64,000 bases of DNA. It comes from Phormidesmis sp. Its GTDB lineage: Bacteria > Cyanobacteriota > Cyanobacteriia > Leptolyngbyales > Leptolyngbyaceae. This document shows, piece after piece, positions 10,531 to 26,809 of this stretch; the stretch's first letter is position 1, and each line of letters begins with the position of its first letter. The position numbers and the translations under genes are program-made. The DNA is taken from assembly GCA_965248535.1 (NCBI GenBank), contig CBDFJR010000002.1:2400001-2464000 (forward strand), written 5' to 3'. Below the pieces are notes generated by a model, which was not told the origin of the DNA, ran no database searches, and saw nothing but the letters and a program-made list of their open reading frames with translations.

Positions 10531-10575
10531 AGTACTCTTCCTGTTTTAGATCGAAATAAATTAATTGTTGCATTC

Positions 10576-12633
10576 CTAACTTTTGCGTTCCGCTTGTTTT
10601 GCTCGGATTGTCGATCGCACCAATTTCACTCGATATGGATCAGCGTCTTTGCGCCACACCACTCGATGCCCCTTCAACTCAGCACAATGATCCTCTAGGC
10701 AAGATCGCCACCCTCTATGATCGCTGATCCGTTTCCAATCCTCCAACAATCCCCAATCCTCTTCCTGCCGACTGAGCTTGGCAAACTTCTCATAACCGGG
10801 ATACTCCGACGTGACCAGCAAATCCTTTTGATGCAACACAGGTGGATTTTCGGCTGAATCATAGTCGCGGTAATGGACATGCAAATCTCGTAAATCAATT
10901 TGCATACTCGTGTGCAGCGCAGGATGGGGATCAGCATCAAAGTCTGGATAAACCAGGTACGTAATTTTAGGCTTCCGACAGTGAAATTTAATCACGTTCG
11001 CTTCTTCAGGGCGACCAATCGTGCGCGACGCACAGCCTTCGTAGAGGCGAAGGAGCGGATCAAGAGTGTCGATCGCGGATAGATGAACCCAAAGGGAATT
11101 CGCTAGCTTCTTCCCGATCGGGCTGTTTTGACATCGTTCTGCCACTACGTCCAAATTGCCCAAACTCATGAGCATGAGATCTGCGGCTGTGCAGGCTTGC
11201 TGAAAGCCTCCAAACAGACTCTTGAGGTCGGTCTGAATCACGCTTGCCAAATCTCGCATCTTGGGACGATGACCAAAATGACTCAGCGCCAGGTAAACTA
11301 GCAAGTCTTGGCGACGGCGATTGCTAATCTCATCCCATTCTTGCGGATTCGTGGCTTGCAAGACAATCTGAAACGCACGGCGGAGATTGCCAAACTCCGC
11401 GCTGAGGGTTTCCGTTTCGGGCAATTCCTCCAGCGTGGGCAATCGTCCCCGCTCGGTGAAGAAAGTCATCAGTGGCGCGAGCTGATCCTTGTAATCTTCA
11501 AATCGCTTGTTCTGAAGCTGCACTTTGGGGACGCTGACGCGCGATCGAAACCGAGCGGCGCGGAAATTCTGTGCTTGTGCCTCATCTCGAAAGACAAAAT
11601 AAATCCCTAGCGCAACCGGAACCGCGTCTACTCCTAGCACCTGGTCGATGTAAAGCTTGAGTTCTTCCTGGTCGTAATATTTCTGAAAGGTATTGCGGCT
11701 GGTGATAATGCCATCTCCATAGGCAATTTGGCTATTGCCCTGCGCGATCAATACCTGCGCTGCCACAATCAAAACTTGCTGGGTAAGTTCCCAAGCTTTA
11801 ATTAGAGCCTCTCGCCGCTCTGTTTGGGATTCAACTACATTAATGATGTAGCCCAAATTCACGACATCGGCTGTCACCAATTGGGTATCCGGTTGATAAT
11901 AAGGGTCCCAACCTGAACTGGGATAACCCAATTTGGCGATCCGCTCCAAATCGCCGCCCTGACCGCATCCATAGTCAAAGAATCTCGTCTCTTTCTGAAA
12001 AAGACTTGCTTCCAAGGCGAGACGGACAGGTTTAGAAAAGTCATTGCGGCTGATCGCAGCTTTGTGTCGATCGATCTTGACTTGAGAACTTTGAGAATTG
12101 AGGAGCGATCGCTGAATCAGGGTATGTCCCTGAAACGCAACGCGAAACGCTGCTAATCGTTTTTCCCACGCCAAACGAGTGCCAATCCCACGCGAATTAT
12201 CCAACAACCCTAAAGCCTCTTCTTGACGAGTCAGAGCCGCAAACTGTTGGTAACGCGGATAATCTGGAGCAACGAACGTTTCCTTGCGATGCAAGATGAA
12301 AGGGTTCTCACTGCTGCTGTAGTCCCGGTGATTCACTTCCTGCTTGGCTAAATCAACCTGAAGGCTAGCGACCAGCGCTGGATGGGGATCGCTGTCAAAT
12401 TCTGGATAGGTTAAATACGAGAGGCTAGGTTTATCAAAACTAAATTTGACTAGCGTAACGGCTTCAGCAGAATCGAGGAGTTGACGCGCTTCAGCTTCGT
12501 ATGTTTGTAAAAGCGGATCGAGAACTGGGACGGCTGAAATGTGAACGTAAAGCGCATCCGGCAAAAGTTTACCCACCCGACTTCGCTGGCAGGCACTGGT
12601 GATGGTGCTGAACTCATCAAGGCTACAAAACAT
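10576..12633 (-). CDS. DNA phosphorothioation-associated putative methyltransferase
   Basis: IDRHKAAISR..SKP, FFDYGCGQGGD SAM motif, GWDPYY, VVNLGYIINVVE, TFQKYY. Confidence 0.85.
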   Translation of the reverse strand: MFCSLDEFSTITSACQRSRVGKLLPDALYVHISAVPVLDPLLQTYEAEARQLLDSAEAVTLVKFSFDKPSLSYLTYPEFDSDPHPALVASLQVDLAKQEVNHRDYSSSENPFILHRKETFVAPDYPRYQQFAALTRQEEALGLLDNSRGIGTRLAWEKRLAAFRVAFQGHTLIQRSLLNSQSSQVKIDRHKAAISRNDFSKPVRLALEASLFQKETRFFDYGCGQGGDLERIAKLGYPSSGWDPYYQPDTQLVTADVVNLGYIINVVESQTERREALIKAWELTQQVLIVAAQVLIAQGNSQIAYGDGIITSRNTFQKYYDQEELKLYIDQVLGVDAVPVALGIYFVFRDEAQAQNFRAARFRSRVSVPKVQLQNKRFEDYKDQLAPLMTFFTERGRLPTLEELPETETLSAEFGNLRRAFQIVLQATNPQEWDEISNRRRQDLLVYLALSHFGHRPKMRDLASVIQTDLKSLFGGFQQACTAADLMLMSLGNLDVVAERCQNSPIGKKLANSLWVHLSAIDTLDPLLRLYEGCASRTIGRPEEANVIKFHCRKPKITYLVYPDFDADPHPALHTSMQIDLRDLHVHYRDYDSAENPPVLHQKDLLVTSEYPGYEKFAKLSRQEEDWGLLEDWKRISDHRGWRSCLEDHCAELKGHRVVWRKDADPYRVKLVRSTIRAKQAERKS

Positions 12634-12911
12634 TCAACACAGACTTTGGGTGACACGTCCGCCCTAACTGGAACTCATTATGCTACCGCTTGGCAAAAGT
12701 TGGTTAACTTGTACCGCTTCAGGGATCATCGTTCAGTCTATCGCTGTCGGGCTTCCTCAATCTTACCGCTATGGATGGAGTGATGAGAATTTCTTATGCG
12801 CTCCTTGAACGCTACCTGTAGTAAAATAAACCCGCTTCGATTATCTTGATCAGGATAATGTTCAATTAGCCTCGAATCATAGACAATAAATACATTAGTT
12901 CTATATTAATT

Positions 12912-13820
12912 ATGGCAGTAGAGCAGATCACCCACAGCAATAGCGCCTCAAACCCAGTTGTGTTTGCGCGTCATGAGACCTTTCATCCCCGGTTCGGTTG
13001 GCTCAAGAAAGGGTTTGATCGCGCCTCTGCCGATTCGGAAATTTTCCTACGAGAGGATGCTCCTGTTCGCTTGGGCGTAGGAAAGAATATGGTGCGATCG
13101 ATTCGCTATTGGTGTCAAGCCTTTAAGCTGCTGGAAGCTGATCAGCCCACAGAATTTGGCATTCAATTATTGGCAGAAGCAGGCTGGGACTCATTCTTAG
13201 AAGATCCTGCCTCCTTGTGGTTACTGCATTGGAAACTACTGGAACCACCCTGTTACGCCACGACATGGGAGTTTGTCTTTAACCAGTTTCGCCCCGTCGA
13301 GTTTTCCGTTGAGGAATTGTTTAATCAGCTTTGTGAGTACCGCGATCGTATCGCTCCTCGGATGGCAGAGTCATCCTTGCGAAAGGATATTAGCTGCCTC
13401 CTGCGAACCTATACCCAACAGGTGAGCGGTAAGAATTCGGTCAGTGAAGACTCGCTAGATTGCCCCTTTTCCGAATTGGGGTTGCTCTATCCAGCAGGCA
13501 ATTCTCGCACTTATGGATTTCGGATGGGGCAAAAGCCAACGTTACCCGCCGCTGTTGTCGTCTATGCCTGTTTACATTACGCCGCTCGATCGATGGAAGG
13601 ACAAAAGCGAATTCCGATTGGCAAGCTGCTTTACGACCCCGGTAGCCCTGGGCAGGTGTTTCGTCTGACAGAAAGCGCCTTGGATGCTGCAATTACAGTA
13701 TTCGCAGATGAGACTTCCTTGGGAATCAGCGATGCCGCCGGAAAACGAGAATTTTTCTTTAGCGATGAGCCGATCGATAAAGCAACGAATATCCTGAACA
13801 CGTATTACAGAGCGAGGTGA
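12912..13820 (+). CDS. DUF4007 family protein (SspB-like)
   Basis: FARHETFHPRFGWLKKG, LGVGKNMVRSIRYW, LEDPASLWLLHW, DCPFSELGL. Confidence 0.85.
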   Translation: MAVEQITHSNSASNPVVFARHETFHPRFGWLKKGFDRASADSEIFLREDAPVRLGVGKNMVRSIRYWCQAFKLLEADQPTEFGIQLLAEAGWDSFLEDPASLWLLHWKLLEPPCYATTWEFVFNQFRPVEFSVEELFNQLCEYRDRIAPRMAESSLRKDISCLLRTYTQQVSGKNSVSEDSLDCPFSELGLLYPAGNSRTYGFRMGQKPTLPAAVVVYACLHYAARSMEGQKRIPIGKLLYDPGSPGQVFRLTESALDAAITVFADETSLGISDAAGKREFFFSDEPIDKATNILNTYYRAR

Positions 13821-13824
13821 GGCG

Positions 13825-16482
13825 ATGAAAAATCAATCTTTAGCAAGCTATTTCAGCCTGCATCGCCGCTACCATCGCTCTATTAATCTAGAGCGAGATT
13901 TTGACAAGGTTGATGCGGTTGAGGGATATGTTCTGACAGAGCGATCGAGTGAAGCGCTCCAACGAATCGTGACGGCAATCGGTAATCCTAAAGCGCATCG
14001 TACCTGGACTCTCACTGGGACATATGGCTCAGGTAAATCAGCATTTGCGCTTTATCTAACTGCGCTCTGCGCTCCAGAAGACAGCTCATTCGATGAGGCG
14101 GCTTGGACGATCGCAGAACGGACACTGCCAAAAAATAGCCCTATTTTTCAGGCAATTAGAGAGTACTTGCCGACAGAAGGGTTGCTGCGGGCAGTCGTTG
14201 CGGGAGCCAGAGAGCCGCTTGGATGGACGATTATTCGAGCGCTTGCCAATGGAATAAGGCAAATCGGGTCGCGCAAGCGAAGATCAGCAGTGATACAGGC
14301 AATCCTGAATTGGGATAGTGAGGTGGCAGTGGGTCGCTGCCAGATTACAAATCAGCAAGTGTTGACGACACTCCAGCAGCTAGCCCAGATTGCAGGTATG
14401 GATATTTTGCTGGTGATTGATGAGTTGGGCAAGAACTTAGAATATGCTTCTCATCATCGCAGCACTGAGGATTTGTACTTACTTCAGCAGATCGAAGAGT
14501 TGCGCCATCAGGATCATCAGGTCTATTTCCTGGGCTTGTTGCATCAGTCGTTTGTAGGCTACAGCGAACAGTTAACCGCGATCGAGCAAAATGAATGGAC
14601 AAAAATTCAGGGGCGGTTTGAAAATCTGCAACTAACTGAGTCTCCGAGTCAGATGACGCGGCTGATTGGCTTAGCGATCGAGCAATCTGATTCGATTTCA
14701 TTAGTCTGTAATCAGCAGGCGAACCTTTGGTATCAAGCACTTCAAGCAACGTTAGTTGATCAAGAAGTATCTGCGAAAGTTTTAGCCTCAACGTATCCAC
14801 TGCATCCCATTACGGCGTTAGTCCTACCGCTGTTATGCACTCGCTATGCCCAAAATGATCGCTCGCTCTTCACCTTTTTAACGAGTGATGAACCTCACGC
14901 CTTGACTCGATTCCTTCAAACTCACGAGCTAGAAGAAGATGAGTTTTCGACGCTTAAACTGCATCAGCTATATGATTATTTCGTGGAATCTGTTGCAGGG
15001 TTGGCTTCTCAAGTAAATCTTCAGCGCTGGGTTGAAATTCAGACTCTAATTCAGGATGCGCGATCGCAAGATGAAGACATTCTCAAGGTACTGAAAACCA
15101 TCGGAATTCTTAACCTAATTGCTTCAACAGGAACACTCAAGGCAACACCTGACTTGGTTTCATTGGCACTGTGCGATCGTCCAAATGATAAAACAGCGTT
15201 AAAGCATTGGCGTAAACAAATTGACTTGCTGAAAAAACGCGGCACGATTATCTACCGCTCTCAGGCAGACGAACTGCGGATTTGGGAAGGATCAGATTTC
15301 GACGTAGAGGCAGAGATCGTTGAACACATTGAAAAGTCGCAGCGAGTCTCCCTTGCTGAGCTTTTGACGGCGACTCATCCGCTCAAGCCAATGGTGGCAC
15401 AGCGCCACTACACAACAACCGGGAACCTTCGCTACTTTGAACAACGCTATGTGGATAGCCTGACTTCATTGGGGGATCTGCGAACGTCGCTACCTGGTAC
15501 AGATGGGCTAATTCTTTATTGGCTTGATATTGATGCTCCACGAGAGATCCCTAATCAGACTGCTGATGGTAAACCTCTGATCTTAATCACAACGAACCAG
15601 CTTGATCTACTTCGGATTCGATCGCAGCATTTGCAAGCGCTTAAAACAATTAAAGATGCACCAGAGTTAACGTCCGATGGTGTAGCAAAGCGAGAAGTGA
15701 GGCATCGCCTAGTGTTGGCTGGTAGCTTGCTCAATGAGACCATGCAGCAAGCATTTAGTTGGGCAGAAAAACAGAATCGGTGTTGGGTCGATGGAGAACG
15801 ACACAAGATTTGCAGTACTCGTGAGTTTCAAGCTGCTCTTTCTGAATTGTGCGATCGCACCTATCCGCTAGCTCTACGTCTCGACAATGAATTGATCAAT
15901 CGTCGGGATTTAACGTCTCAAGGTGCAAAAGCGCGGCGAGAACTGATCGAAGAAATGCTGAAATCTGCTCATCTTGAAAGATTAGGGCTAGAAGGGTACG
16001 GTCCTGAAGTGGCGATGTACTACTCAGTTTTAGAGGCAACCGGAATTCATCGACAGGAAGCGGGTGAGTGGGATTTCTATCCGCCTCGTCTAGAGTCTGG
16101 AGTAGAAACAGTTTGGGAAAGAATAGAATCTTTTTGCATCGCATCAGTTGATCAACAGCGATCGCTAGATTTGCTCTATCGAGAATTAGAATATCCGCCC
16201 TATGGCGTGAAGGCAGGCGCAGTGCCGCTGCTGCTGGCGGCGTTCTTACTTCACCGAGCCGAGGATATTGGGGTTTACAAGGATGGAACGTTTATTCCTG
16301 TTCTTGGTCCTGAACATTTTGAATTGTTGGTGAAAGCGCCTGAGCGGTTCTCAGTTAAACATTTTGAGATTGCTGGACTGCGATCGCAGGTCTTCCAAAA
16401 GCTAGAGGTGGTGCTGAAGTCTCCCAATAGCAAAACTCCATCGGGAGTGCGGAATGCGTCTTTGTTAGCGATTGCGAGTTAG
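13825..16482 (+). CDS. P-loop ATPase (SspC-like), probably C-terminally truncated
   Basis: RSINLERD, GTYGSGKS Walker A, LLVIDELGK Walker B, YPLHP, QNDRSLFTFL; stop overlaps stop of convergent HNH gene. Confidence 0.75.
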   Translation: MKNQSLASYFSLHRRYHRSINLERDFDKVDAVEGYVLTERSSEALQRIVTAIGNPKAHRTWTLTGTYGSGKSAFALYLTALCAPEDSSFDEAAWTIAERTLPKNSPIFQAIREYLPTEGLLRAVVAGAREPLGWTIIRALANGIRQIGSRKRRSAVIQAILNWDSEVAVGRCQITNQQVLTTLQQLAQIAGMDILLVIDELGKNLEYASHHRSTEDLYLLQQIEELRHQDHQVYFLGLLHQSFVGYSEQLTAIEQNEWTKIQGRFENLQLTESPSQMTRLIGLAIEQSDSISLVCNQQANLWYQALQATLVDQEVSAKVLASTYPLHPITALVLPLLCTRYAQNDRSLFTFLTSDEPHALTRFLQTHELEEDEFSTLKLHQLYDYFVESVAGLASQVNLQRWVEIQTLIQDARSQDEDILKVLKTIGILNLIASTGTLKATPDLVSLALCDRPNDKTALKHWRKQIDLLKKRGTIIYRSQADELRIWEGSDFDVEAEIVEHIEKSQRVSLAELLTATHPLKPMVAQRHYTTTGNLRYFEQRYVDSLTSLGDLRTSLPGTDGLILYWLDIDAPREIPNQTADGKPLILITTNQLDLLRIRSQHLQALKTIKDAPELTSDGVAKREVRHRLVLAGSLLNETMQQAFSWAEKQNRCWVDGERHKICSTREFQAALSELCDRTYPLALRLDNELINRRDLTSQGAKARRELIEEMLKSAHLERLGLEGYGPEVAMYYSVLEATGIHRQEAGEWDFYPPRLESGVETVWERIESFCIASVDQQRSLDLLYRELEYPPYGVKAGAVPLLLAAFLLHRAEDIGVYKDGTFIPVLGPEHFELLVKAPERFSVKHFEIAGLRSQVFQKLEVVLKSPNSKTPSGVRNASLLAIAS

Positions 16483-17924
16483 CTTCGAGAGTAAGCCCAG
16501 CCAGCTTCAAAGCCTAAGCTCGTAGCGAGAGACATCAAGGGTTGTATGGTAGAACTGTAAGCCTTGCTGAGTTTCTCAAAGTCAGTTAAATCATCTTTCG
16601 TATTCAGTCTCAAATCAGAAATATAGGAATCAATAAACTTGTTCCAGGTTCTATCTTTGCTCATCTTTTCTTTCCAGACGATTAAGCCAAGATGATGCAC
16701 TCTCACAAAGGAATCAAAATAGACTGACGAAGGAATTATTTTAGATTTTGAAGAATTAACATCGCCAAATGTTGGAATTAGATTCCAGATTTGATCATGT
16801 GCCACGAATGACCAGGGAAGATAATGATCAAGAGAAAGTTTAGAATCTGCTCTCAAAGGGCGATTTGAGTAAATGCAGCTAATTTCGTCTGTATGCTCTA
16901 GAACTGCTTGCCAGTACTTTGTTTGGGAAGTTAAAGCGCCTCTTCTAATTTGAGGAAAAAGTTTATTTGAGATTGCAGGTGTACTTGGATTTCGGCTTTG
17001 CATATATTGCAGCCATTCCCAAGCAACCCATCCTCTTACAATGGAATAATTCATTCTAATGTAAGAAGTCCATTCGGGAGATAGGTAAATGGATTTGCAT
17101 GAATTTGGGGAATCACCATCAAGTTTGTAAAGCGGTTTAGCTGTATCGAAATGCTGTTCAGCTAGAAGCATGATTATTTCATTTTCGATATGATCGTTTC
17201 TTACAGCGTCTCGGTTCTGGCTCTTGTAAGCTTTCAACTGCTGAGATAGAAAAGGTGTAATCAGTCGAAACGGTACATATCTCATTAACGAATCTTTCCC
17301 TATCAAAAGGCTGTCTAGGTTTCGTTTTGAGAGTTCTTCTCTAAGCAGTTCTTTCTCTGATTCGTCGAAAGCTGGCTTATCAAGATTTAGAGCAAGAGAG
17401 TCTAGCTTGATAGCAATTTTGTCTTGTGTGCCAAATGATAATTTGAAATAAGTATGCGGATACCAAGCATTGACTAATATTTCAATCAGCAACTCTCTAA
17501 AGCTGATTGGCGACTCAGCATCAAAGTTTCGTCTTCTCAGAATGTCGAGCAAGGAGAGAAAGAAAACGTACTTATAAGAAGTGGTTGTTTTATCGAAAAG
17601 TCTGGAGAAAGCAGCAACGTTTAAGCCTTCGTTTTCAGGAAGCCACCCGAAGCCCTCACCGACAGGATTTGTCCATGTTTCTGATGAACTGGCTCCTATA
17701 GACAAATCGGCGGCATATAGGCTGATAAACTCGTCGGCTGCATCAGGATTAATCGACCTGAGTGCTGCAATGATGCCTTGAACAGTTTCCGAGTTAGGAT
17801 CTCTGACTTCAGCGACCCATCGATGAACGTTAGACCGAGCAATACTAAGCTTTTCAGCCAATTTACCCTGGCTGATGCTGTGACTTGTCAAAACTTGCCC
17901 TAGAACCTTGCCTGCTTTTCCCAT
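16479..17924 (-). CDS. XRE-HTH fused to HNH endonuclease-family protein
   Basis: N-terminal ISQGKLAEKLSIARSNVHRWV HTH; TTSYKYVFFLSLL; CIYS..SLDHYLPWSFVAHDQIWNLIP....NSSKS HNH motif. Confidence 0.85.
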   Translation of the reverse strand: MGKAGKVLGQVLTSHSISQGKLAEKLSIARSNVHRWVAEVRDPNSETVQGIIAALRSINPDAADEFISLYAADLSIGASSSETWTNPVGEGFGWLPENEGLNVAAFSRLFDKTTTSYKYVFFLSLLDILRRRNFDAESPISFRELLIEILVNAWYPHTYFKLSFGTQDKIAIKLDSLALNLDKPAFDESEKELLREELSKRNLDSLLIGKDSLMRYVPFRLITPFLSQQLKAYKSQNRDAVRNDHIENEIIMLLAEQHFDTAKPLYKLDGDSPNSCKSIYLSPEWTSYIRMNYSIVRGWVAWEWLQYMQSRNPSTPAISNKLFPQIRRGALTSQTKYWQAVLEHTDEISCIYSNRPLRADSKLSLDHYLPWSFVAHDQIWNLIPTFGDVNSSKSKIIPSSVYFDSFVRVHHLGLIVWKEKMSKDRTWNKFIDSYISDLRLNTKDDLTDFEKLSKAYSSTIQPLMSLATSLGFEAGWAYSRS

Positions 17925-17960
17925 GCTTCTGATCGTGTCAGAGAAGTTTGTTTCCGTAAA

Positions 17961-18013
17961 TAGAAGCCAATTGGCTTCCAACTCGTGTTATTGTGGAAAC
18001 TAATTGGTTTCCA
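17961..18013. promoter_or_regulatory. Tandem palindromic operators
   Basis: GAAGCCAATTGGCTTC (17963-17978, perfect) and TGGAAACTAATTGGTTTCCA (17994-18013, one mismatch). Confidence 0.65.
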
Positions 18014-18040
18014 TTTATTTAACCTTCAGGATGAACTTCG

Positions 18041-18232
18041 ATGCGATACGAAGACCTTCTGCACCCTTGGATAATCGTTCGTCACCTTCCAAATCTGCAA
18101 AATCTCACAGTGAAGCGGTTTCGCCGTCGGAATGATGCTGATGAGTGCCTGAAAGCCCTCCGCCGTCTTTCCCCTAACGGGGAATTCATCATCATGTTTG
18201 ATGGTGCGGTTCAAACACAGGAGAAGCTCTAA
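18041..18232 (+). CDS. Small conserved cyanobacterial hypothetical protein
   Basis: Y..LLHPWIIVR.LP.LQ...V.RFRRR.DAD pattern; divergent from the XRE-HTH gene. Confidence 0.7.
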   Translation: MRYEDLLHPWIIVRHLPNLQNLTVKRFRRRNDADECLKALRRLSPNGEFIIMFDGAVQTQEKL

Positions 18233-18489
18233 TGACCAGAGTTAGACATTTTCAGGAGTTAGATTATGCTTTGACTCTGAGAATCCTTCATGATACGAGG
18301 GGCTGTGATAGAAGCACGATTCAAGTTAAAGACTTAACTGGTAAAGTGTTTGAGACGTGGCATCGTAGGTATAGGCTGTGGCGCAATCCAATTCATGGAA
18401 CAGCTAAAAACCTTGCTGCAATCAAGACTATCTATAACGCGATCGACATTGACGATTACGTTAGAAAAAACGGTTACTACGATTATTAG
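18232..18489 (+). CDS. Hypothetical protein
   Basis: 85-aa ORF coupled to upstream gene by TAATG overlap. Confidence 0.55.
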   Translation: MTRVRHFQELDYALTLRILHDTRGCDRSTIQVKDLTGKVFETWHRRYRLWRNPIHGTAKNLAAIKTIYNAIDIDDYVRKNGYYDY

Positions 18490-18504
18490 CCTTTCTTCTC
18501 AGTC

Positions 18505-18740
18505 GATCGCTGCACTCCTTGCTATTGATAGAGCGCTTCTTTCTACTGAAGAATTGCTCCTTTGCCATAGTGGACAGTTTCTTCGTGCTGATGGACAGTC
18601 TCTTCGTGCTGATGGACAGTTTCTTTGCAACGATGGACAGTTTCTTCGTACTGATAGATAGTTTCTTCATGACTGATAGATTGTTTCATGTCGCCGATCG
18701 AATAGCTCTTGCTGCTGATGCACTATTTCATTAGCCAGAA
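18505..18740. repeat. Degenerate 21-bp tandem repeat (core GATGGACAGTTTCTTCGTGCT), about 11 units
   Basis: Four near-identical units at 18569-18652 with degenerate flanking units. Confidence 0.8.
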
Positions 18741-18844
18741 GAACGGCTCCTTTGGTAAAAAGAAACGTTCCTACCGTGAGATAGAAACGTTGTCTAATTA
18801 ACCCGATTGAAGCAAGTTGAACAAAGGTTGTCCGATTCAGGTAA

Positions 18845-19339
18845 TCAGGAAACCCCAGCAGGAATCGGTTGTGAGCTAGACTCAACCGTGTCTTTCTTGT
18901 TGCGACGAGCAAACTGCTGCTTGAGTTGTTCCACAACAATCTTCATTCCTGGCATATCATCGTGAGCTTTGGCAGCATCGTATACTTTCAAAGAAGCGGT
19001 ATACGCCTCACATTGAGCGGTGAAATAGGTGTCATCAACTAGGCTGTGCAGTTCAGTTAGAGCCATCAGCACCGGATAGAGATCTTCCATCAACTTCACG
19101 TCTTTCTGCATCTCTTCTACGTCAAACGATCGCGGTAAGCAATCGGTATGTTGTTGCGCGGCATCCAAACAATTGAGCATGAAACCACGACTGCGATCGC
19201 CAACTTTAGGCGCGGCTTTGCGATCGTCTACGGTCAAATGCACCAAAAAGGGCATGGCTTGCTTAATCGTGTCGATCGCTGCCATGACAGCTTTGCGATC
19301 TTCTGCGCTTAACGTGGCACTAATTCGGTTTGATGTCAT
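18845..19339 (-). CDS. Conserved hypothetical all-helical protein
   Basis: NRISATLS..PFLVHLT.DDRK..K.GD.S..F..LPRSFDVEEM.KD..DDT....EAY...L.VY. Confidence 0.75.
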   Translation of the reverse strand: MTSNRISATLSAEDRKAVMAAIDTIKQAMPFLVHLTVDDRKAAPKVGDRSRGFMLNCLDAAQQHTDCLPRSFDVEEMQKDVKLMEDLYPVLMALTELHSLVDDTYFTAQCEAYTASLKVYDAAKAHDDMPGMKIVVEQLKQQFARRNKKDTVESSSQPIPAGVS

Positions 19340-19405
19340 ATAAATTACACAAAAAACAGCTTGTACTTAGACGGTACTGCTCCTGTTATATCGTTGGGAA
19401 AGTTA

Positions 19406-19751
19406 AAACCCCTGTGATCAAGCTCACTGCACTTGTGAAATCGGTTTATCTTTTAGCCGCCGCACTCGCTATGCACCTAATGACGCGCTTCTCAGAACGC
19501 TTGTGCTTGCATCTGTGTCAACTCGGATGGAGTTTCAAGAATTTTTAGCAAAATTGCATCAGAAATACGGCTTTATCATTGGCGATCGCCAAGCCGAAGC
19601 TCTGATCAACTCCGGTGATGCCGATCGTGAAGACTTCGTGGCAAATGCCGAACGGCTCGAACGTCGCCTTGCCAGTATCGGGCTGCTCAAACGCCTCTCC
19701 GATGCCTGTGCCTACGTCCAAAACCCCTTTGCCTCAGAGGTGAAATCATGA
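19406..19751 (+). pseudogene. C-terminal remnant of an SspG/DndG-like restriction-module subunit
   Basis: EIGL...RYAPNDALLRTLVLA...RMEFQEFL..L..KYGFIIG...LERRLASIGLLKRLSDACAYV.NP; ATGA-coupled to FtsK gene; no N-terminus. Confidence 0.6.
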
Positions 19752-22700
19752 AAACTATCGAATTGATTGGTCAAGTCGCGGCTGACTTTCTCAAGCGATC
19801 GATTCAAACCGATGAAGCCAGCGAAGGGGTTGCACGATTCCTGCTCAATCGTCTAACTGCCCAACAGATCGCGGCAGTCTGCAAAACGATTCTGCAAGAC
19901 TCCGAGCTTTCTCCGCTCATCAAAATTCAAATTCCGCGCGATTTAGTCGAAAGCTACAATTTACCTGAAGAAATTCTCACTGTTGAATCAACCGTTCACT
20001 TACGACATTCAGCGTGCGATCGCCCTGCGCTCCTGCTAGTCAATATTAGTGACGACCAAGCCCAATCCCTAAAGGATATTACTTCAGTCGGCGCTCAAGA
20101 ATTGAGAGGGCAAATTGACTGTTGGATTGACCTAGCCGCGAGGGATTTAGCAATTCCGTCTGAGCAAATCGAGTATTGGCGTAAAGCTCTCAACGGACTG
20201 CAAAAAGTTGGCACCCCTAGCTTAGAAAATTTTGCGGAATTCATTGTTCAGACGCGATCGCGCATTCTTGACCAAAGCCTTCCCGTCGTCGATGCGCTGG
20301 GCTGGGCACTTCCCGCGCTGCGCCTTCCTCGTGATTCTGGTTACTTTCGAGCGATTCCTGAAACCCAGTGGGGACAAACTCAGCGTTGGGAAAACCTATT
20401 TCAGCAAGCCTTCACAAAACGCGCTTGTCTATTGCTAAAGCAAACGCCTAACCGTAAACCGATCGATGAGCAAGAGCTACAAACTGCCTTCGATAAAGTA
20501 AAAGATGATATCCCTGCGATCGCTCATCCCATTATTCAATCATTCATCGCGAGTTCCGCAGGCTGGAATCCTCATGCTGAAAATCTCGCTCAGTTCGAGT
20601 GGGAATCTGAAAATATCAACACACTTTTCTCTGGCTTACAGGCACAGAAAACAGACATTGCTTCTCTCACGCTAGAGTTTTTCAATGATGAGTATCCCGA
20701 TGTTCTGACTGAAGAGGAGTCGCAGTACATCAATGCACTCAAGAAGAAACGTAGTAAGCGTGAGGCACTAGACGAGGATCGGGAGTTCTATGATGCCCAT
20801 CGTCCAGAGCTTGAAGATAATCCTAAACTTAAAGCCAAGTGGGATAAATTCGTCTACGGGCAACCCCTTGAATGCACAGATTTCATGATTGGGTTACTCC
20901 AAGCCTTTGAGCGCCTCTTTAACCAAGCAGAGACGGTTGATGGTGTTAAATCGCTCAAAATCGAGACGCAGAAGAAAGCTGGCAAAAGTAAATGGCTAGA
21001 ACTGAATGCTGATGTGGGTCGATATTTCTGCACCCGCTATCGAGGAATTGAACAACTAACTGCCGCACACATTGAATGGGACACTCACTGGCTATTTAAG
21101 TACGAAACCCTGCTCGAAGAAACTCAGAAAAAGCAGAAGTCGAAATATCGTGAGAATACCTCCGCTGCAAAAACCGCAACAGAAATTAAGTTCTACATAG
21201 AGATGCGGGATAGCGCTAAGACATTAATTGCAAAAACTCAACTCGTTTGGCGCTGTAACCCGAATGCGATCGGGATGGAGTTGAGCAGTGATTTAGCAAG
21301 GCTTCTGAATAAATCTCCCTTTCAGCTTTCAACAGTGGCGCGAGAGCTAGTTAGCAGAAAGGGGCGTTTGCAGGGAATTTCCCTATCTGATGTCGGAACT
21401 TTGATGGCTACATACAGCAAAGATCGCGGTTCCTTAATCGGTAAATATGAAAATAAGGACGATCTCGCCAAGATTCTACCTAAACAACTTAAACAAGCCG
21501 TTGCAGAAGGTCGCCTCTCGAAGGAAGGGGCAGATGCGATCGCAGATGCTTGGAAAGCTTTTACAGATCGATATCGGGCTGCGATCGCAGGGTTTACATC
21601 CGCAGACGGACGAGGCATCGCCAATCCAGAATTGCTACACCAGTGCGAAGCTTACAAGGCGCTGCTCAACACGATCCTCACTCATGTCAAAGGCGATCTC
21701 AATCGCATCAACTTGTACCAACCTGTGTTGCGTTTAGGCTGTATTCAAGTTGAACGCGGTAAACCTGCGGCGATCGTTGCGCCTTGGCATCCTCTGAGAT
21801 TAGCCTCTCTAGCAATCAAGGTTCGTCAACTCGCAGGCTTGCTCCAATACATTATCTCCACCCCAGAAGTGAATTTTGGAGATTCTCGCCTATTCTTTGC
21901 CGACTTACGAAACGAACTCGATCACCCTTACTATCCCGAAGTCTGCGTCGGCTACCAAGGGCAGCAACCCGAACTTCTATCTGTCTCCGATACGCTCAAT
22001 GACTATAGTTTGATGGAGCGCCCGACACGAGACGAAAGCGATCGCACCACTAATGAGAACCCTGCCGAAGCAGCCGATCGATTACTTGGCATCATTCGTC
22101 GCTATGTCGAACTAATGCCCCACGAGAAGGCTAATCTGAGCGTGGTGCTGTACCAAACCGACTCGATTAAACTGCCTCAAGCGATCGTCCATAAACTGAG
22201 CGAAGAACTTCAAGACGATCGTGAGGAAGTTCGCTGTCAGGTTATTCTGCGTCATCGAAATGGACAGAAACTCACTCAACTCTACGAGCAAATGCTAGAG
22301 AGTTCTGATGCTGACCCAGATGCGTTTATTGCTAGCGAAGTTTCTCAAGACTTTATGGCAAGACTTCGCATTTCAGTCATGTCTCATGATGTCCCGACCA
22401 CTAACCCTAGAGAAGGCAAGTTTGCTGACATCGTGTTTCTACAAGATGCAATTTCCCGGCAAGCGAAAGTTGTCTGGCAACCGTCTCCTTTCGATAGCGC
22501 CGCAGCCGATCTTCTAATTCACTCCCCTGCGCGTTGGTCGCGTAAGCGCCCTTCTGCGACAGATGAACTCAAGTCCACAGTTTACCTTACCTGCCCTAAG
22601 CAACCCGTAGTCGGACAGATCTACCTCGACCTCGTGTACAGCATTATTGAGGGCGAAGACTGCTCTCCTGAGCAACACTTTCTACCTGCTCGTCAGATTT

Positions 22701-25078
22701 CTTTTCAAGACGAAACCACAAAGACAACCTTTGATGAAAGTCATCGTTTAGGAGAATGGGTCGTCAACTACGATGATCTCTTAGAAAGGAGACAACTGGT
22801 TAATCAAGGCGTAAAGGTCATTCGCTACCAGCAGCATCGTACCGACGAACGCAATTTCTTAGTCTCTTCAGATGCGTCATTGAATGTTCTCAAAGTGCTA
22901 GTAAGGAAGCGACTCGGTGATCTCAATCTGGCACTGGAAAGTGATCGCATTGATAAACTTGTAGAGCGCTTGATTAACGATGCCAATGCAGTTTCTGGTG
23001 ACATTGTGTTGCGAGCTGCGAAATGCGGCAGATTTGCGAGTGAACTGATGGGCGTTGTTCTTAGCAAGGCACTCATTACAGCAGAAATGGGAGCGCAAAA
23101 TCCCATCGGCTGGTACTTCCTGGATGACTATGCCTCCTGGCTCGGACAGAAAGAGGGGCAAATTGCTGACATGATGGCAATTTCACCGCAGTACATTGAT
23201 GATGAGCCTGTTCTCAAAGTCATTGTTTCAGAAGCAAAATATGTTGATGTCGCTGGCTTAGCCGATGCCCGCAAGACTTCTCAGAATCAATTAAGGCAGA
23301 CGGTCGATCGTATTGCCGATGCTCTGTTCATTAGTCCTGGTCGCCTCGATCGCGATCTTTGGCTTTCTCGTCTCAGCGATCTTCTCATTGATGGCATTGA
23401 GTTTAGCTCCAACAATAAAGTGAATATTGAGCAGTGGCGTGAACAGATTCGCTCAGGGACTCTTCGCATCGATTTATCTGGCTATTCACACGTTTTCGTC
23501 ACGGGCACGAATGATAGCAATGCTGAAGGAGAACGATCGCCCATTCCCAAAGTGCAGCGATGTTTTCAAGAAGTCTTCGATCGTGAATCTGTTCGCAAGC
23601 TGGTTCTGGCTTACGAGTCGGGACAGTCGTTGTTTCCCACACGAGAGCAAATCGGCGATGACAAGCCGTGGACAGTGACTCAAGCCTTGCCACCTGCAGA
23701 TCGAGTCACCTGGGTATTAGAGATTGAGAAAGTAGAAGCCGTAAATGCTACTCCCTTAGTAGCGGATGTTACTCCATTAGTAGGAAAGGAAGATAACCAG
23801 ACAGAGAACCCTGACCAGCTAGTTCAGCTAACCCTTCCTGATGAGCCACTCCAACCTACACCCGCCGATTCTTCTATCGTTTCAAATGTTCAGGCTCTCC
23901 ATAGTTGGGCAAGTCCGGCACTTGTTGCGTGGTGGCAGCAAGGACAAGCACAAAGCAATCAGAGTGATGCAGCAGCAGAAAAATGGCTAGAAGAAACTGC
24001 CGGAAAATTGCGGACGGCATTACTGGGATACAGCCTACAAGCCAAAATTGAAGGCAAGCGATTGACTCCCAATGCGGCGATCGTGCGATTCAAAGGTTCT
24101 GATCATCTGAAGCTAGAGGACATTGAGAAGAAGCGATCGCAACTCTTAACCACTCATTCCCTAAACGTAATCAGCCTCTATGGTCAGCCAGGTGAAATTG
24201 TGGTTTCGGTTGCCCGTCCTCAGCGCCAAACCATCTCTCTACGTGAGGTGTGGGAGAAACGAAAAGTCAATCGCTCTTCTTCAGGAATTAACCTCAGTTT
24301 TGTCCTTGGAGTCAAAGAAATCGATGGCGAACTGCTCTACCTCAACCTAGATAGTAGCTTCGAGAATCTGGAGCAACACGCTCCTCACACCTTAATTGCT
24401 GGAGCAACGGGAAGCGGAAAATCAGTTCTGCTACAAAATCTCCTGCTCGATATTTGTGCAACCAACTCGCCTAAACTCGCCCAGATCTACCTCATTGATC
24501 CCAAGATGGGTGTCGATTATGCCAATATTAGCGACCTTCCTCATCTCAAAGAAGGCATCATTATCGAGCAAGAACGCGCGATCGAGATTCTGGAATTTCT
24601 AGTCGAAGAAATGGACAATCGGTACCGTAAATTCCTTCCTCAGAAAGCAAAATCTTTGCAGGATTACAATTCCAAAATGCCTGAGCAGGATCGACTCCCG
24701 GTACTTTGGCTTGTTCACGATGAGTTTGCCGAGTGGATGCTGATCGATGAGTACAAAACGGCTGTATCTGCTGCTGTACAGAGATTAGGTGTGAAAGCGA
24801 GAGCCGCAGGAATTCATCTCATTTTTGCCGCACAGCGTCCTGATGCCAATGTGCTTCCAGTGCAGCTTAGAGATAATTTAGGCAATCGACTAATCCTAAG
24901 AGTCGAAAGTGTCGGCACTTCAGAAATCTCACTCGGACAAAAGGGTGCAGAGAACCTCTTGGGTAAAGGACATTTAGCGGCTCGTTTAACAAACCAATCC
25001 GATCTGATTTACGCTCAAGTTCCCTTCCTTGGGGATGAAGACATGGCTACAGTCGCAGAAATTATCAAACAGCAGTGA
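19748..25078 (+). CDS. Large FtsK/SpoIIIE-domain protein (SspH/DndH-like)
   Basis: 1776 aa; PHTLIAGATGSGKS, LIDPK, LVHDEFA, ARAAGIHLIFAAQRP; central IAD...SEAKY possible PD-(D/E)xK motif. Confidence 0.8.
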   Translation: MKTIELIGQVAADFLKRSIQTDEASEGVARFLLNRLTAQQIAAVCKTILQDSELSPLIKIQIPRDLVESYNLPEEILTVESTVHLRHSACDRPALLLVNISDDQAQSLKDITSVGAQELRGQIDCWIDLAARDLAIPSEQIEYWRKALNGLQKVGTPSLENFAEFIVQTRSRILDQSLPVVDALGWALPALRLPRDSGYFRAIPETQWGQTQRWENLFQQAFTKRACLLLKQTPNRKPIDEQELQTAFDKVKDDIPAIAHPIIQSFIASSAGWNPHAENLAQFEWESENINTLFSGLQAQKTDIASLTLEFFNDEYPDVLTEEESQYINALKKKRSKREALDEDREFYDAHRPELEDNPKLKAKWDKFVYGQPLECTDFMIGLLQAFERLFNQAETVDGVKSLKIETQKKAGKSKWLELNADVGRYFCTRYRGIEQLTAAHIEWDTHWLFKYETLLEETQKKQKSKYRENTSAAKTATEIKFYIEMRDSAKTLIAKTQLVWRCNPNAIGMELSSDLARLLNKSPFQLSTVARELVSRKGRLQGISLSDVGTLMATYSKDRGSLIGKYENKDDLAKILPKQLKQAVAEGRLSKEGADAIADAWKAFTDRYRAAIAGFTSADGRGIANPELLHQCEAYKALLNTILTHVKGDLNRINLYQPVLRLGCIQVERGKPAAIVAPWHPLRLASLAIKVRQLAGLLQYIISTPEVNFGDSRLFFADLRNELDHPYYPEVCVGYQGQQPELLSVSDTLNDYSLMERPTRDESDRTTNENPAEAADRLLGIIRRYVELMPHEKANLSVVLYQTDSIKLPQAIVHKLSEELQDDREEVRCQVILRHRNGQKLTQLYEQMLESSDADPDAFIASEVSQDFMARLRISVMSHDVPTTNPREGKFADIVFLQDAISRQAKVVWQPSPFDSAAADLLIHSPARWSRKRPSATDELKSTVYLTCPKQPVVGQIYLDLVYSIIEGEDCSPEQHFLPARQISFQDETTKTTFDESHRLGEWVVNYDDLLERRQLVNQGVKVIRYQQHRTDERNFLVSSDASLNVLKVLVRKRLGDLNLALESDRIDKLVERLINDANAVSGDIVLRAAKCGRFASELMGVVLSKALITAEMGAQNPIGWYFLDDYASWLGQKEGQIADMMAISPQYIDDEPVLKVIVSEAKYVDVAGLADARKTSQNQLRQTVDRIADALFISPGRLDRDLWLSRLSDLLIDGIEFSSNNKVNIEQWREQIRSGTLRIDLSGYSHVFVTGTNDSNAEGERSPIPKVQRCFQEVFDRESVRKLVLAYESGQSLFPTREQIGDDKPWTVTQALPPADRVTWVLEIEKVEAVNATPLVADVTPLVGKEDNQTENPDQLVQLTLPDEPLQPTPADSSIVSNVQALHSWASPALVAWWQQGQAQSNQSDAAAEKWLEETAGKLRTALLGYSLQAKIEGKRLTPNAAIVRFKGSDHLKLEDIEKKRSQLLTTHSLNVISLYGQPGEIVVSVARPQRQTISLREVWEKRKVNRSSSGINLSFVLGVKEIDGELLYLNLDSSFENLEQHAPHTLIAGATGSGKSVLLQNLLLDICATNSPKLAQIYLIDPKMGVDYANISDLPHLKEGIIIEQERAIEILEFLVEEMDNRYRKFLPQKAKSLQDYNSKMPEQDRLPVLWLVHDEFAEWMLIDEYKTAVSAAVQRLGVKARAAGIHLIFAAQRPDANVLPVQLRDNLGNRLILRVESVGTSEISLGQKGAENLLGKGHLAARLTNQSDLIYAQVPFLGDEDMATVAEIIKQQ

Positions 25079-25085
25079 GTCAACC

Positions 25086-26279
25086 ATGCCCCACAGCAAG
25101 TTAGAGAATAATTCACCTCAAAAGCCCATCTATCTGGACTATCACGCGACTACGCCGACCGATCCGCGAGTTGCAAGTTTGATGCTGCACTACATGACTG
25201 AGGAATTTGGCAATGCTAGCAGCACCGATCATGAATATGGCGATCGCGCTGAAGCTGCCATTAAACAAGCCGCCAAAAACGTTGCCGATTTAGTCGGAGC
25301 TTCACCACGAGAAATCATCTGGACATCAGGCGCAACTGAAAGCATAAATCTTGCCATCCAAGGCAGTCTTTCTCCCAATCCGCAAAAGCCGCATCGAATC
25401 GCTCTGCCTCCGATCGAACATAAAGCCGTTCTCGACACCTGCCATGCTCTTGAAAAGCGCGGTTGGGCAGAGCTAATTTATTTGCGAGTCGATTCTAAAG
25501 GTAAGCTCGACCTCGACCATTTAGAGCAAGTTTGTGCTGAGGGAGTGTCTTTACTCTGCGTCATGGCTGCAAATAACGAGATTGGTAACATCTACCCAAT
25601 TCAGGCGATCGGGCGAATTGCTCAACGTCACAATATTCCGTTTCTTTGCGATGCCTCCCAAGCCGTTGGTAAGATTCCAATTCAGTTTGAGGAGTGGGGC
25701 ATTACTTATCTCGCAATCTCTGGGCATAAGCTTTACGCTCCTAAAGGAGTTGGGGCGATCGTTGTGCGTAAAGGACATCATTTAGAGCCAATGATGTTTG
25801 GGGGCGGGCATCAGAAGGGAATGCGATCGGGGACGCTCAACGTTCCAGGAATTGTGGGATTGGGAGAGGCTTGTCGGCTGCGATCGCTAGAAATGGAAGC
25901 CGATGAACGTGCGATCGCGACCCAGCGTGACAGGCTCCAAGCTTTACTTCTAGAGAAGTTCTCCAATCTAGTCATCAATGGGGATGTAGAACACCGTTTA
26001 GCGGGCAATCTTCATCTTTCAATTCCTGGAATTCCTAACAGTGCCGTCATCGCTAGAATTCGTCACCAGTTGGCAATTTCAACGGGTTCGGCTTGTTCAT
26101 CAGGCATCGAGTCGCCTTCTCATGTGCTTCAAGCCTTACGCTTGCCAGAGGATATCGTCGAAGGCGCGTTCCGAATTGGACTCGGAAAATTTACGACGGA
26201 TGATCAGGTTAACAAAGCATTTGAAGTTCTCTCTGATGCAATTACTCAGGTTCAGCAGGTTCTCTGTGCGATTTCTTAA
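25086..26279 (+). CDS. Cysteine desulfurase (IscS/DndA/SspA-like)
   Basis: IYLDYHATTP, SGATES, NNEIG, SGHKLYAPKG (PLP Lys), STGSACSS (catalytic Cys). Confidence 0.92.
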   Translation: MPHSKLENNSPQKPIYLDYHATTPTDPRVASLMLHYMTEEFGNASSTDHEYGDRAEAAIKQAAKNVADLVGASPREIIWTSGATESINLAIQGSLSPNPQKPHRIALPPIEHKAVLDTCHALEKRGWAELIYLRVDSKGKLDLDHLEQVCAEGVSLLCVMAANNEIGNIYPIQAIGRIAQRHNIPFLCDASQAVGKIPIQFEEWGITYLAISGHKLYAPKGVGAIVVRKGHHLEPMMFGGGHQKGMRSGTLNVPGIVGLGEACRLRSLEMEADERAIATQRDRLQALLLEKFSNLVINGDVEHRLAGNLHLSIPGIPNSAVIARIRHQLAISTGSACSSGIESPSHVLQALRLPEDIVEGAFRIGLGKFTTDDQVNKAFEVLSDAITQVQQVLCAIS

Positions 26280-26362: not shown

Positions 26363-26809
26363 TCAAGGCGAAGATAAGATCTCGTCCAAAAGCATGAGAG
26401 GTAAATTAGGAACGTTGCGGAAGGCACGATCGTTGCTCAGGAAAACTGTACAGTTCGCACTTAAAGCAGTAGCTGCATGAATGGCATCAGGCGTTTTCAG
26501 ATTGGTGGTCGCTCGCAGATTAGCGGCATCCCGTAAAATAGAACGCTGAATCGGAATCAGTTGAATGTCTGAGTTTTCCAGTAGCTGTTCGTAGTCGTTC
26601 GCAAGGACTGTATTTGTCTGTCTCAGAGGGAAGACGAGCGTTTCCATGAGAGTTAATTCACTGGTTACGATCTCAAGTTCGCTTGCCTGAAATTTTGCCC
26701 AGAGAGGTTGAAGCAGGTCAAAATAGGTTGGATTCGCTTCGACGGTGTAAATAATGATCTGAGTGTCGATATAAATACTGGCAGCAGTAGGTAGTGCTAG
26801 CGGTCCCAT
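26363..26809 (-). CDS. VapC-like PIN-domain toxin
   Basis: IYIDTQIIIY, TLMETL, LKTPDAIHAATA, FLSND acidic PIN motifs. Confidence 0.88.
   Translation of the reverse strand: MGPLALPTAASIYIDTQIIIYTVEANPTYFDLLQPLWAKFQASELEIVTSELTLMETLVFPLRQTNTVLANDYEQLLENSDIQLIPIQRSILRDAANLRATTNLKTPDAIHAATALSANCTVFLSNDRAFRNVPNLPLMLLDEILSSP

Follow-up and report, generated by a model that had tools for sequence, protein, structure and literature searches.

Phosphorothioate (PT) modification systems are usually described as a writer of the mark joined to a restriction partner, or as solitary writers. In SspABCD–SspFGH of Vibrio and E. coli, as set out in the pertinent part of PMC8092258, SspFGH is toxic and damages DNA in cells without PT, and sspF, sspG and sspH are each essential. 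We analyzed a 64,000-nt stretch of the genome of the cyanobacterium Phormidesmis sp. (hereafter the window; the genome consists of five contigs and is 99.76% complete) in which PADLOC models recognize homologues of SspB, SspC, SspH and SspA on either side of an inserted cassette. Unlike SspABCD–SspFGH, this locus has no sspD and no sspF, retains only the last ~106 codons of sspG, and encodes an SspC that is short by ~290 residues; its divergent TIGR04096 gene, for a PT-associated putative methyltransferase (MTase), belongs to the cyanobacterial form of the system. We consider it probable that the locus is a derived Ssp PT island whose writer was lost by replacement and whose remnant has been conserved under selection.

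The intact cyanobacterial loci of G463, a congener, and of G427 indicate what the cassette displaced. In both, the MTase gene and sspB are followed by sspC (1172 aa in G463, 1179 aa in G427), sspD (268 aa), a variable gene (sspE in G463, a Uma2-like gene in G427), sspF, sspG (523 aa) and sspH; a full sspA follows in G463, and a short, weak SspA-like match only is found in the stretch examined in G427. Gene order in the window matches that of these relatives, including the coupling of the sspG stop to the sspH start (TGA 19749–19751 overlapping ATG 19748–19750), with the cassette standing in the place of sspD, the variable gene, sspF and full sspG. By the coordinates of the relatives, the missing stretch amounts to ~7.2 kb (G463) or ~5.4 kb (G427). 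At the left junction the TAG that ends SspC (16480–16482) and the stop of the convergent HNH gene (plus-strand TTA, 16479–16481) share the two bases 16480–16481. At the right junction, tblastn with the proteins of intact relatives aligns window positions 19437–19745 with residues 418–523 of the 523-aa SspG at 91% identity, and the open frame of this stub starts at GTG 19503 (82 aa) or at ATG 19527 (74 aa). A preliminary description of the window, made from the sequence alone, had given the gene order and identities, had noted that the ATPase ends abruptly on the convergent HNH stop, and had proposed that deletion or replacement took away the sspC tail, sspD, sspF and most of sspG; the open reading frame (ORF) listing, profile scans and synteny with G463 and G427 bear out these points.

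Homologues of the SspC ATPase do not naturally end near 885 aa. Intact relatives carry proteins of 1159–1179 aa, and the twelve places in the same order (90 genomes surveyed) at which the match stops at query residue 883–884 have open frames of 1115–1207 aa. Of the top 120 database homologues, 105 reach or exceed 1080 aa; the other 15, at 681–951 aa, include the window's own protein and are partly contig-edge fragments. SspG was found in five genomes of a phylum sample of 401 and is cut in the window's only, and the protein database holds twenty short SspG C-terminal ORFs, some with other junctions.

The writer is missing from the rest of the genome as well. No PAPS (3′-phosphoadenosine 5′-phosphosulfate) reductase ORF lies in the window, and a PF01507 search of the whole genome found a single place, cysH (NF002537, 296 bits against a cut-off of 154); as a positive control, the same search recovers the sspD of both intact loci, G463 and G427. 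Across the whole genome the SspD model PDLC02782 had no match at E ≤ 0.01 and the SspD protein of a relative none at E ≤ 1, and tblastn of the genome with relatives' SspD (four queries), SspF (two queries, from G463 and G427), SspG and SspC gave no extra pieces. The SspABCD module is thus represented by SspB (the DUF4007 DNA-binding protein/nickase), SspA and an SspC of less than full length, with SspD, the ATP pyrophosphatase of PAPS-reductase fold, absent genome-wide, and the SspFGH module by full-length SspH and the SspG remnant, with SspF absent from window and genome. In the order survey, sspC occurs in 20 genomes and sspD in 15, all of them within the 20; the five genomes with sspC and no sspD are the window's, that of a second genus (G442) described below, and three with fragmented sspC (G422, G477 and G478). 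Loss of the writer from the locus is well supported, and on its gene content we infer that the locus cannot write Ssp-type PT. It would be very surprising if PT were still written here by another enzyme in place of SspD, with an 885-residue SspC sufficing. The intact and constrained sspA, sspB and sspC ATPase core would suit such activity, as would the existence of compact sspB-sspC-HNH-sspA loci without sspD (L020 and L021), but cysH is the only PAPS-reductase-fold gene of the genome, the loss of sspF and sspG would be expected if the mark had vanished, and all four known PT systems, in the account given by the relevant part of PMC12914056, include a gene for a PAPS-reductase-domain protein.

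The same rearranged locus is present in G442, which belongs to another genus (96% complete). Its contig C929 (6671 bp) is colinear with window positions 15854–22410 across both junctions (80.8% identity over 6589 columns), and contig C966, which abuts C929, aligns with positions 9532–15855, from mcrB to sspC residue 677 (78.8% over 6363 columns); here too, cysH is the sole PAPS-reductase gene. Because the independently assembled G442 has the same junctions, they are not an assembly artefact. Contigs from a sequencing run of a ~95–97% identical organism (X3) also cover most of the locus, including the cassette bins, though bridging of the junctions is not established for them. Among the sequencing runs listed, none is of RNA. 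CysH is 78% identical between the window's genome and G442 and 93% identical between the window's genome and the congener G463, and the sspB and sspC of that congener are 63–66% identical to those of the window; on this one marker, CysH, the island departs from the species tree.

Selection on the remaining genes was estimated from the ratio of nonsynonymous to synonymous divergence (dN/dS) between window and G442 (Nei–Gojobori; Table 1), with dS around 1 or more for MTase, SspB, SspC, HNH, the stub and SspH. The McrB row and all pairs with G486, in which an in-frame stop shifted the codon alignment, were dropped, as were non-coding or wrong frames (dN/dS about 1). Against five relatives, SspH gave dN/dS of 0.04–0.06, many dS values in that set being saturated. 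The intact pair G463–G427 gave 0.070 for SspC and 0.053 for SspH, and because the truncated copies have similar values they show no relaxation. How far unconstrained sequence has diverged at this distance can be read from the 97-bp spacer that separates the 164-aa gene from the stub, where identity with G442 is down to 57%. Since the genes stay open with dN/dS of 0.03–0.08 while this spacer fell to 57%, the leftovers must still do something that is selected. The replacement is old and its product stable. The wreck implied by the preliminary description gives way to a locus whose remaining genes are under strong purifying selection and whose junctions recur in a second genus.

Table 1. Features of the locus in window coordinates, with the evidence for their identity and dN/dS against G442.
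Feature	Position	Strand	Identification or extent	dN/dS
mcrC-like, 391 aa	7870..9045	-	PF10117 E 3.1e-43	
mcrB-like GTPase, 493 aa	9049..10530	-	AAA_5; N-terminal residues 1-215 without family	
Phosphorothioation-associated putative methyltransferase (MTase), divergent from sspB	10576..12633	-	TIGR04096 E 4.7e-265	0.069
sspB (DUF4007), intact, 302 aa	12912..13820	+	PF13182 E 8.7e-95; PADLOC SspB PDLC02768 E 1.3e-116	0.034
sspC, cut after residue 885, C-terminal ~290 residues gone	13825..16482	+	positions 2-873/1104 of PDLC02781	0.063 (885 codons)
Replacement cassette, 2960 bp	16477..19436	.	between sspC homology end (16476) and sspG homology start (19437), tblastn	
HNH nuclease, 500 aa	16479..17981	-	HNH_4 (PF13395 E 2.5e-9) + HTH_3	0.071
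Two palindromes, 59-bp HNH/63-aa-gene spacer	17964-17980 and 17993-18014	.	read from sequence	
63-aa gene, divergent from HNH gene	18041..18232	+	profile built from 17 upstream ORFs, E 5.4e-28	0.29
85-aa gene, start overlaps stop of 63-aa gene	18232..18489	+		0.16
21-nt tandem repeat, 5 copies, between 85-aa and 164-aa genes	18571..18677	.		
164-aa gene	18845..19339	-	no known family	0.17
sspG stub	19437..19751	+	positions 424-498/498 of SspG model	0.028 (81 codons, dS 1.1)
sspH, intact, 1776 aa	19748..25078	+	PDLC02806, 1-1774 vs 1-1766/1766; C-terminal FtsK-like ATPase, PF01580 E 4.3e-35	0.046 (first 886 codons)
sspA cysteine desulfurase, intact	25029..26279	+	PADLOC SspA PDLC02759 E 1.1e-140; Aminotran_5	
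PIN toxin gene	26363-26809	-		

The cassette itself had been taken to be unrelated to the Ssp genes around it, and this did not hold: the HNH gene and its 63-aa partner occur regularly in cyanobacterial Ssp loci. Searching with the HNH protein gave 58 loci, most of them from cyanobacteria, and 43 of these contain an Ssp-type or MTase gene by BLAST against a reference set of Ssp proteins (the SspA hits may include generic desulfurases). Twenty-four contain sspB or sspC, and in 22 of these HNH points the same way as those genes and lies between sspC/sspD and sspA, L011 (the G442 contig) and L012 (a record from Egbenema) being the only two with the reverse orientation. The 63-aa partner family lies just upstream of the HNH gene (19 ORFs among the 58 loci). 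Homologues of the 85-aa gene were found only in G442 and in the Egbenema record (which has two copies), so that the gene accompanies the three inverted copies of the module, and a quick tree unites the three inverted HNH proteins in one clade, whose stem measures 0.68 changes per column and whose Shimodaira–Hasegawa-like support (SH-aLRT) is 100. The 164-aa gene is 87% identical in G442, has a 41% identical paralogue in the same genome ~75 kb upstream of the locus (C2:2343524-2343973), and has a 36% identical homologue beside the HNH gene of L015. By this distribution, the cassette is an Ssp-resident module that stands inverted here. In the neighborhoods of ten HNH loci without Ssp genes, PADLOC found ordinary defence-island genes and nothing PT-specific.

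Five genomes of the order (G430, G436, G449, G450 and G470) have HNH, sspC and sspD together in one locus, and the HNH gene is for that reason an accessory of writing loci and no marker of writer loss. The presence of HNH as a cause of sspD loss was dropped, as sspD is kept in 6 of the 9 order genomes with sspC and HNH and in 9 of the 11 with sspC and no HNH, which amounts to no association. A multi-copy mobile element was ruled out by the single copy of the cassette in the genome, and no terminal inverted or direct repeats of a transposon-like kind surround it. An IscB/omega-RNA-like guide RNA upstream of the HNH gene was likewise discarded: Rfam at E ≤ 1 was empty for positions 16000–20000, and the conserved stretch corresponds to the two small genes. 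A scan for promoters and terminators gave counts not above those of shuffled sequence. The two palindromes share a CCAATTGG/CTAATTGG core, one of them being also listed as a stem, and the 59-bp spacer that holds them is 92% identical in G442, above most coding sequence of the locus; they may be candidate operators for the XRE-type helix-turn-helix (HTH) of the HNH protein itself. The region of the 21-nt repeat (18571–18677) aligns with gaps in G442.

The Egbenema locus carries the inverted module in a different setting. Its HNH gene is 81% identical to that of the window and lies inverted between sspC and an sspG stub, with other, CoiA-nuclease-like ORFs in place of the 164-aa gene and an sspG junction ~25 nt from that of the window. 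Its sspC is cut at residue 438 and is of the G463/G427 lineage. Synonymous divergence from intact G427 is 0.43 for SspH and 0.57 for SspB, the Egbenema stub matching the G427 protein exactly, while that between the Egbenema and window HNH genes is about 1.5; because SspH and SspB are so close to G427 and the HNH genes so far apart, the cassette lineage is present in two Ssp backgrounds. The Egbenema placement is, as far as these sequences tell, apparently an independent second event, and the near-coincident cuts in sspG could reflect a selected domain boundary, a hot spot or chance. Transfer of a window-type sspC tail along with the Egbenema cassette was considered and dropped, since the 234-bp spacer there has no sspC homology and matches nothing. 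In the same record (L012:35-2416) sspA is split by an IS630-type transposase (HTH_32 + DDE_3).

Writer degeneration is common among the loci selected by their HNH gene, because sspD is rare, sspC is variously cut and further genomes lack a true sspD. An SspD profile built from five sequences matches 8 of the 58 loci, two of these matches being fragments; sspC is cut at residues 438, 568, 740, 745, about 873, 900 and 949, in addition to frameshifts; and five further genomes with such loci have only 34–44-bit matches to other PAPS-reductase-like ORFs. Related loci have also received insertions of LAGLIDADG, IS630 and Uma2 genes. Several individual arrangements were also recorded. In six loci (L018:8957-9913, L028:8970-9989, L031, L043, L022 and L026) HNH is directly preceded by an antisense LAGLIDADG_2 gene that has a ROS/MucR zinc-finger region; in the four of these with a visible sspC, the sspC gene is truncated (residues 745–949) and sspD is gone. 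L020 (5663–12608) and L021 are compact operons of sspB, full-length sspC, HNH and sspA with no room for sspD; the L020 genome has no true sspD elsewhere, and the arrangement is a possible natural four-gene variant. L015 (8637–13869), an Ssp island with BREX-like effectors, contains HNH, the 164-aa homologue and two small ORFs in a replaced centre, sspD being kept; its insert is flanked by a truncated gene of the 1840-aa type (residues 27–208 only) and a PglW-like gene without its first ~295 residues. The cyanobacterial islands of the sspBCDB-brxCZL type, in the description available from PMC12914056, are similar in having a left module of sspB, sspC and sspD and a variable slot for effectors that ends with sspA (the arrangement of G469, L015 and L028); the window differs in having SspH instead of BREX-like genes and in lacking sspD.

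Such loci raise the question of plain decay, that is, of a dead remnant of a defence island with no function left. The locus has lost its writer and two essential restriction subunits, related loci show an sspC cut at many points and frameshifts, selfish genes (LAGLIDADG, IS630, Uma2) have inserted into them, and the twenty short SspG ORFs of the protein database, some with other junctions, could be read in the same way. Against this, an sspH of 1776 codons, an sspC of 885, an HNH gene of 500 and the stub have all stayed open across ~20% base divergence with dN/dS of 0.03–0.08, next to a spacer that is down to 57% identity. We therefore disfavour decay and regard it as quite improbable for the window. 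Several points nonetheless weigh against a remnant conserved under selection. The dS values above 1 are saturated under Nei–Gojobori and hence rough, and the argument from selection for the truncated SspC and the stub depends on one independent comparison, that with G442. Synonymous divergence from G442 is 0.27–0.41 in the three small cassette genes, 1.1 in HNH and 1.7 or more in sspC and sspH; the low values may stem from a mosaic history or from unusual constraint on silent sites, and if the locus is a mosaic, the flanks could have diverged in part before the event in one lineage. The short sspC (438 aa) and split sspA of Egbenema look like ongoing decay rather than maintenance, and the fragmented sspC of G422, G477 and G478, which are without sspD, suggests that writer loss can simply precede decay.

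The full model of the HNH protein (mean predicted local distance difference test, pLDDT, 83) has an XRE-type HTH at residues 17–96 (best match Z 9.6, root-mean-square deviation 2.7, 74 residues aligned) and a Cas9-type HNH domain at residues 369–417, whose D-H...N...N stretch can be aligned with that of Cas9 and does not vary among 39 sequences; a profile of the family searched against PDB sequences matched the HNH domain only. Modelled alone, the middle domain (residues ~112–348) is a winged helix (pLDDT 92), which we compared with 48,161 chains. Its top match is a generic Cdc6 winged helix (Z 7.4), and five of its seven best matches are PT sulfur-binding domains from Hga, ScoMcrA (three entries) and SprMcrA, aligned over 123–136 residues (8h0l_B Z 7.0, 123 residues; 5zmn_A 6.7; 5zmo_A 6.4; 5zmm_A 6.3; 7ccd_A 5.6), at Z scores below 8, which may reflect a common arrangement only. 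Foldseek against the PDB found nothing at E ≤ 0.001 with either the full or the middle-domain model, Pfam at E ≤ 10 gave no meaningful match for the middle domain, and the Atlas places it in unnamed clusters, not with PF26340. An invariant Y-K pair and a W-Y-P-H motif of the family recall the residues H/R(K) and Y-P that the relevant part of PMC6224610 assigns to the sulfur cavity of ScoMcrA, as a likeness of sequence motifs; K137 and Y174-P175 of the HNH protein are among the invariant residues. On these models the HNH protein is a lead for a PT reader. In a related observation, frames of 256–264 aa in G479 (C1:5967746-5968417), G432, G431 and G460 match only positions ~10–238 of the HNH-family profile, that is, the reader-like middle domain without the nuclease domain.

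The neighbouring McrBC was the other possible reader. Both the McrB AAA+ GTPase and the McrC nuclease subunit are present, and their conserved domains are ordinary (McrB residues 216–478 match E. coli McrB chains at E 1e-53). For the 215-residue N-terminus of McrB, the nearest Atlas clusters have 19–37% of members carrying PF26340, the ScoMcrA sulfur-binding domain, at a score of 0.82 that is below the 0.9 mark and is reached by a third of shuffled proteins; Pfam at E ≤ 10 gave no meaningful match there, and hhalign of the HNH middle domain against this N-terminus gave a probability of 1%. The mcrB gene adjoins the MTase gene in G442 as well, and not in the other loci examined. The MTase gene in turn adjoins sspB in G430, G469, G463, G427, the Egbenema record and G442; its product has no Pfam methyltransferase domain and no PDB sequence match. 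By BLAST to homologues, residues ~490–661 of this TIGR04096 protein resemble its own N-terminal ~170 residues. Of the two, the HNH protein would be the better candidate for a PT reader, on model evidence that is also weak.

A switch from writing PT to reading it was suggested in the preliminary description with McrBC as the reader. Transferred to the HNH gene, the idea would give the HNH protein, perhaps together with McrBC, the role of a type IV nuclease that depends on PT, like ScoMcrA; a host no longer writing the mark could tolerate such a nuclease and would use it against PT-modified invaders. The fold matches and motifs just described speak for such a switch, together with the order of domains, reader then HNH, that is shared with ScoMcrA and SprMcrA, the long stem of the inverted-HNH clade, which is compatible with a functional shift, the Atlas lead for McrB, and the recurrence of mcrB beside the island in G442. 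Set against these are the middling Z scores with a generic winged helix on top, the empty Foldseek and Pfam searches, the unnamed Atlas clusters, the lack of hhalign similarity to McrB and the HNH gene beside intact sspBCD in G430, G436, G449, G450 and G470, since a nuclease directed at the mark of its own locus is hard to reconcile with such loci. On balance, we consider the switch unlikely. The comparison with ScoMcrA, SprMcrA and Hga (PMC6224610, for the part that treats them) is in any case one of partial likeness: a winged-helix, reader-like domain followed by HNH, with weak fold similarity (Z 5.6–7.0), differing in that the protein here has no sequence match to them, no SRA domain, an additional N-terminal XRE-type HTH and a 63-aa partner, and in that the genes of its family usually lie within PT-writing loci. 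PMC10853773, in its treatment of Dnd loci, describes reader-plus-HNH genes just downstream of the modification genes and proposes them as restriction partners. By analogy, the HNH family would be the Ssp counterpart of these genes, and it is a candidate either for a third type of effector in Ssp loci or for a reader of PT. The Dnd-associated proteins differ in their context and their wHTH+SAD+HNH architecture; here the setting is Ssp, the protein family is another one, and SspH is accompanied by an SspG stub without SspF.

Returning to the derived island that we favour, a single replacement would have removed the C-terminal ~290 residues of SspC, sspD, the variable gene, sspF and the first ~417 codons of sspG, and would have put in an inverted module of three to four genes (HNH, the 63-aa partner, the 85-aa gene and the 164-aa gene) whose core normally lies downstream of sspC/sspD in cyanobacterial Ssp loci. 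Simultaneous removal of sspF and sspG would have disarmed SspFGH: because that complex is toxic without the mark and needs each of its subunits (PMC8092258, as above), losing the writer and the restriction subunits in one event would have been survivable. The most likely guess for what is left is PT-independent or modification-reading nuclease modules, one formed by HNH and its partner and another by SspH and the SspG C-terminal peptide, and SspB, the truncated SspC and MTase may keep a role in DNA scanning or marking. Retention of a DndH/SspH-type protein without the modification module has a parallel in the decoupled DndFGH covered in part of PMC10853773. A complex prediction for the SspG stub with SspH residues 1400–1776 returned a score of 0.00, and Pfam at E ≤ 10 found no meaningful match in the stub and the small ORFs. 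A bolder proposal, to which we give little credence as a whole, is that SspB, the short SspC, HNH with its sulfur-binding-like reader domain and its 63-aa partner, the ~75-residue SspG peptide and SspH form a working writer-less defence system that acts without self-phosphorothioation, either by attacking PT-marked invaders or by using the MTase mark as self, and that the HNH cassette lineage would have turned writing Ssp loci into this form on two or more occasions, in different Ssp backgrounds, the sspG cuts falling ~25 nt or less apart. Just past the locus (27073–31503), the genes for a 1057-aa protein with WD40 repeats and for a 364-aa protein that combines NACHT-associated NNH5 with inactive-restriction-endonuclease domains look like a further defence-type gene pair of the same island.

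Excerpts from the literature on SspABCD/HNH, cyanobacterial SspB, SspFGH and sulfur-binding domains/McrBC describe no selected writer-less Ssp locus and no such HNH family. What appears to be new, judging from the genomes compared, is a writer-less Ssp product that is conserved rather than decaying and that incorporates a nuclease module at home in Ssp loci. This is the opposite of the outcomes usually described for PT systems: the writer and two restriction subunits were lost together, and the rest is kept by selection across genera. The locus suggests why writer and restriction genes must go in one step, and it brings to notice a family of nucleases without annotation, composed of HTH, reader-like domain and HNH, which together with a small partner gene resides in cyanobacterial Ssp loci. 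It also constitutes a natural experiment in what SspB, SspC, SspH and the C-terminal tail of SspG do without PT, and the selected function, if identified, would bear on whether DndFGH/SspFGH-type proteins can act without PT.

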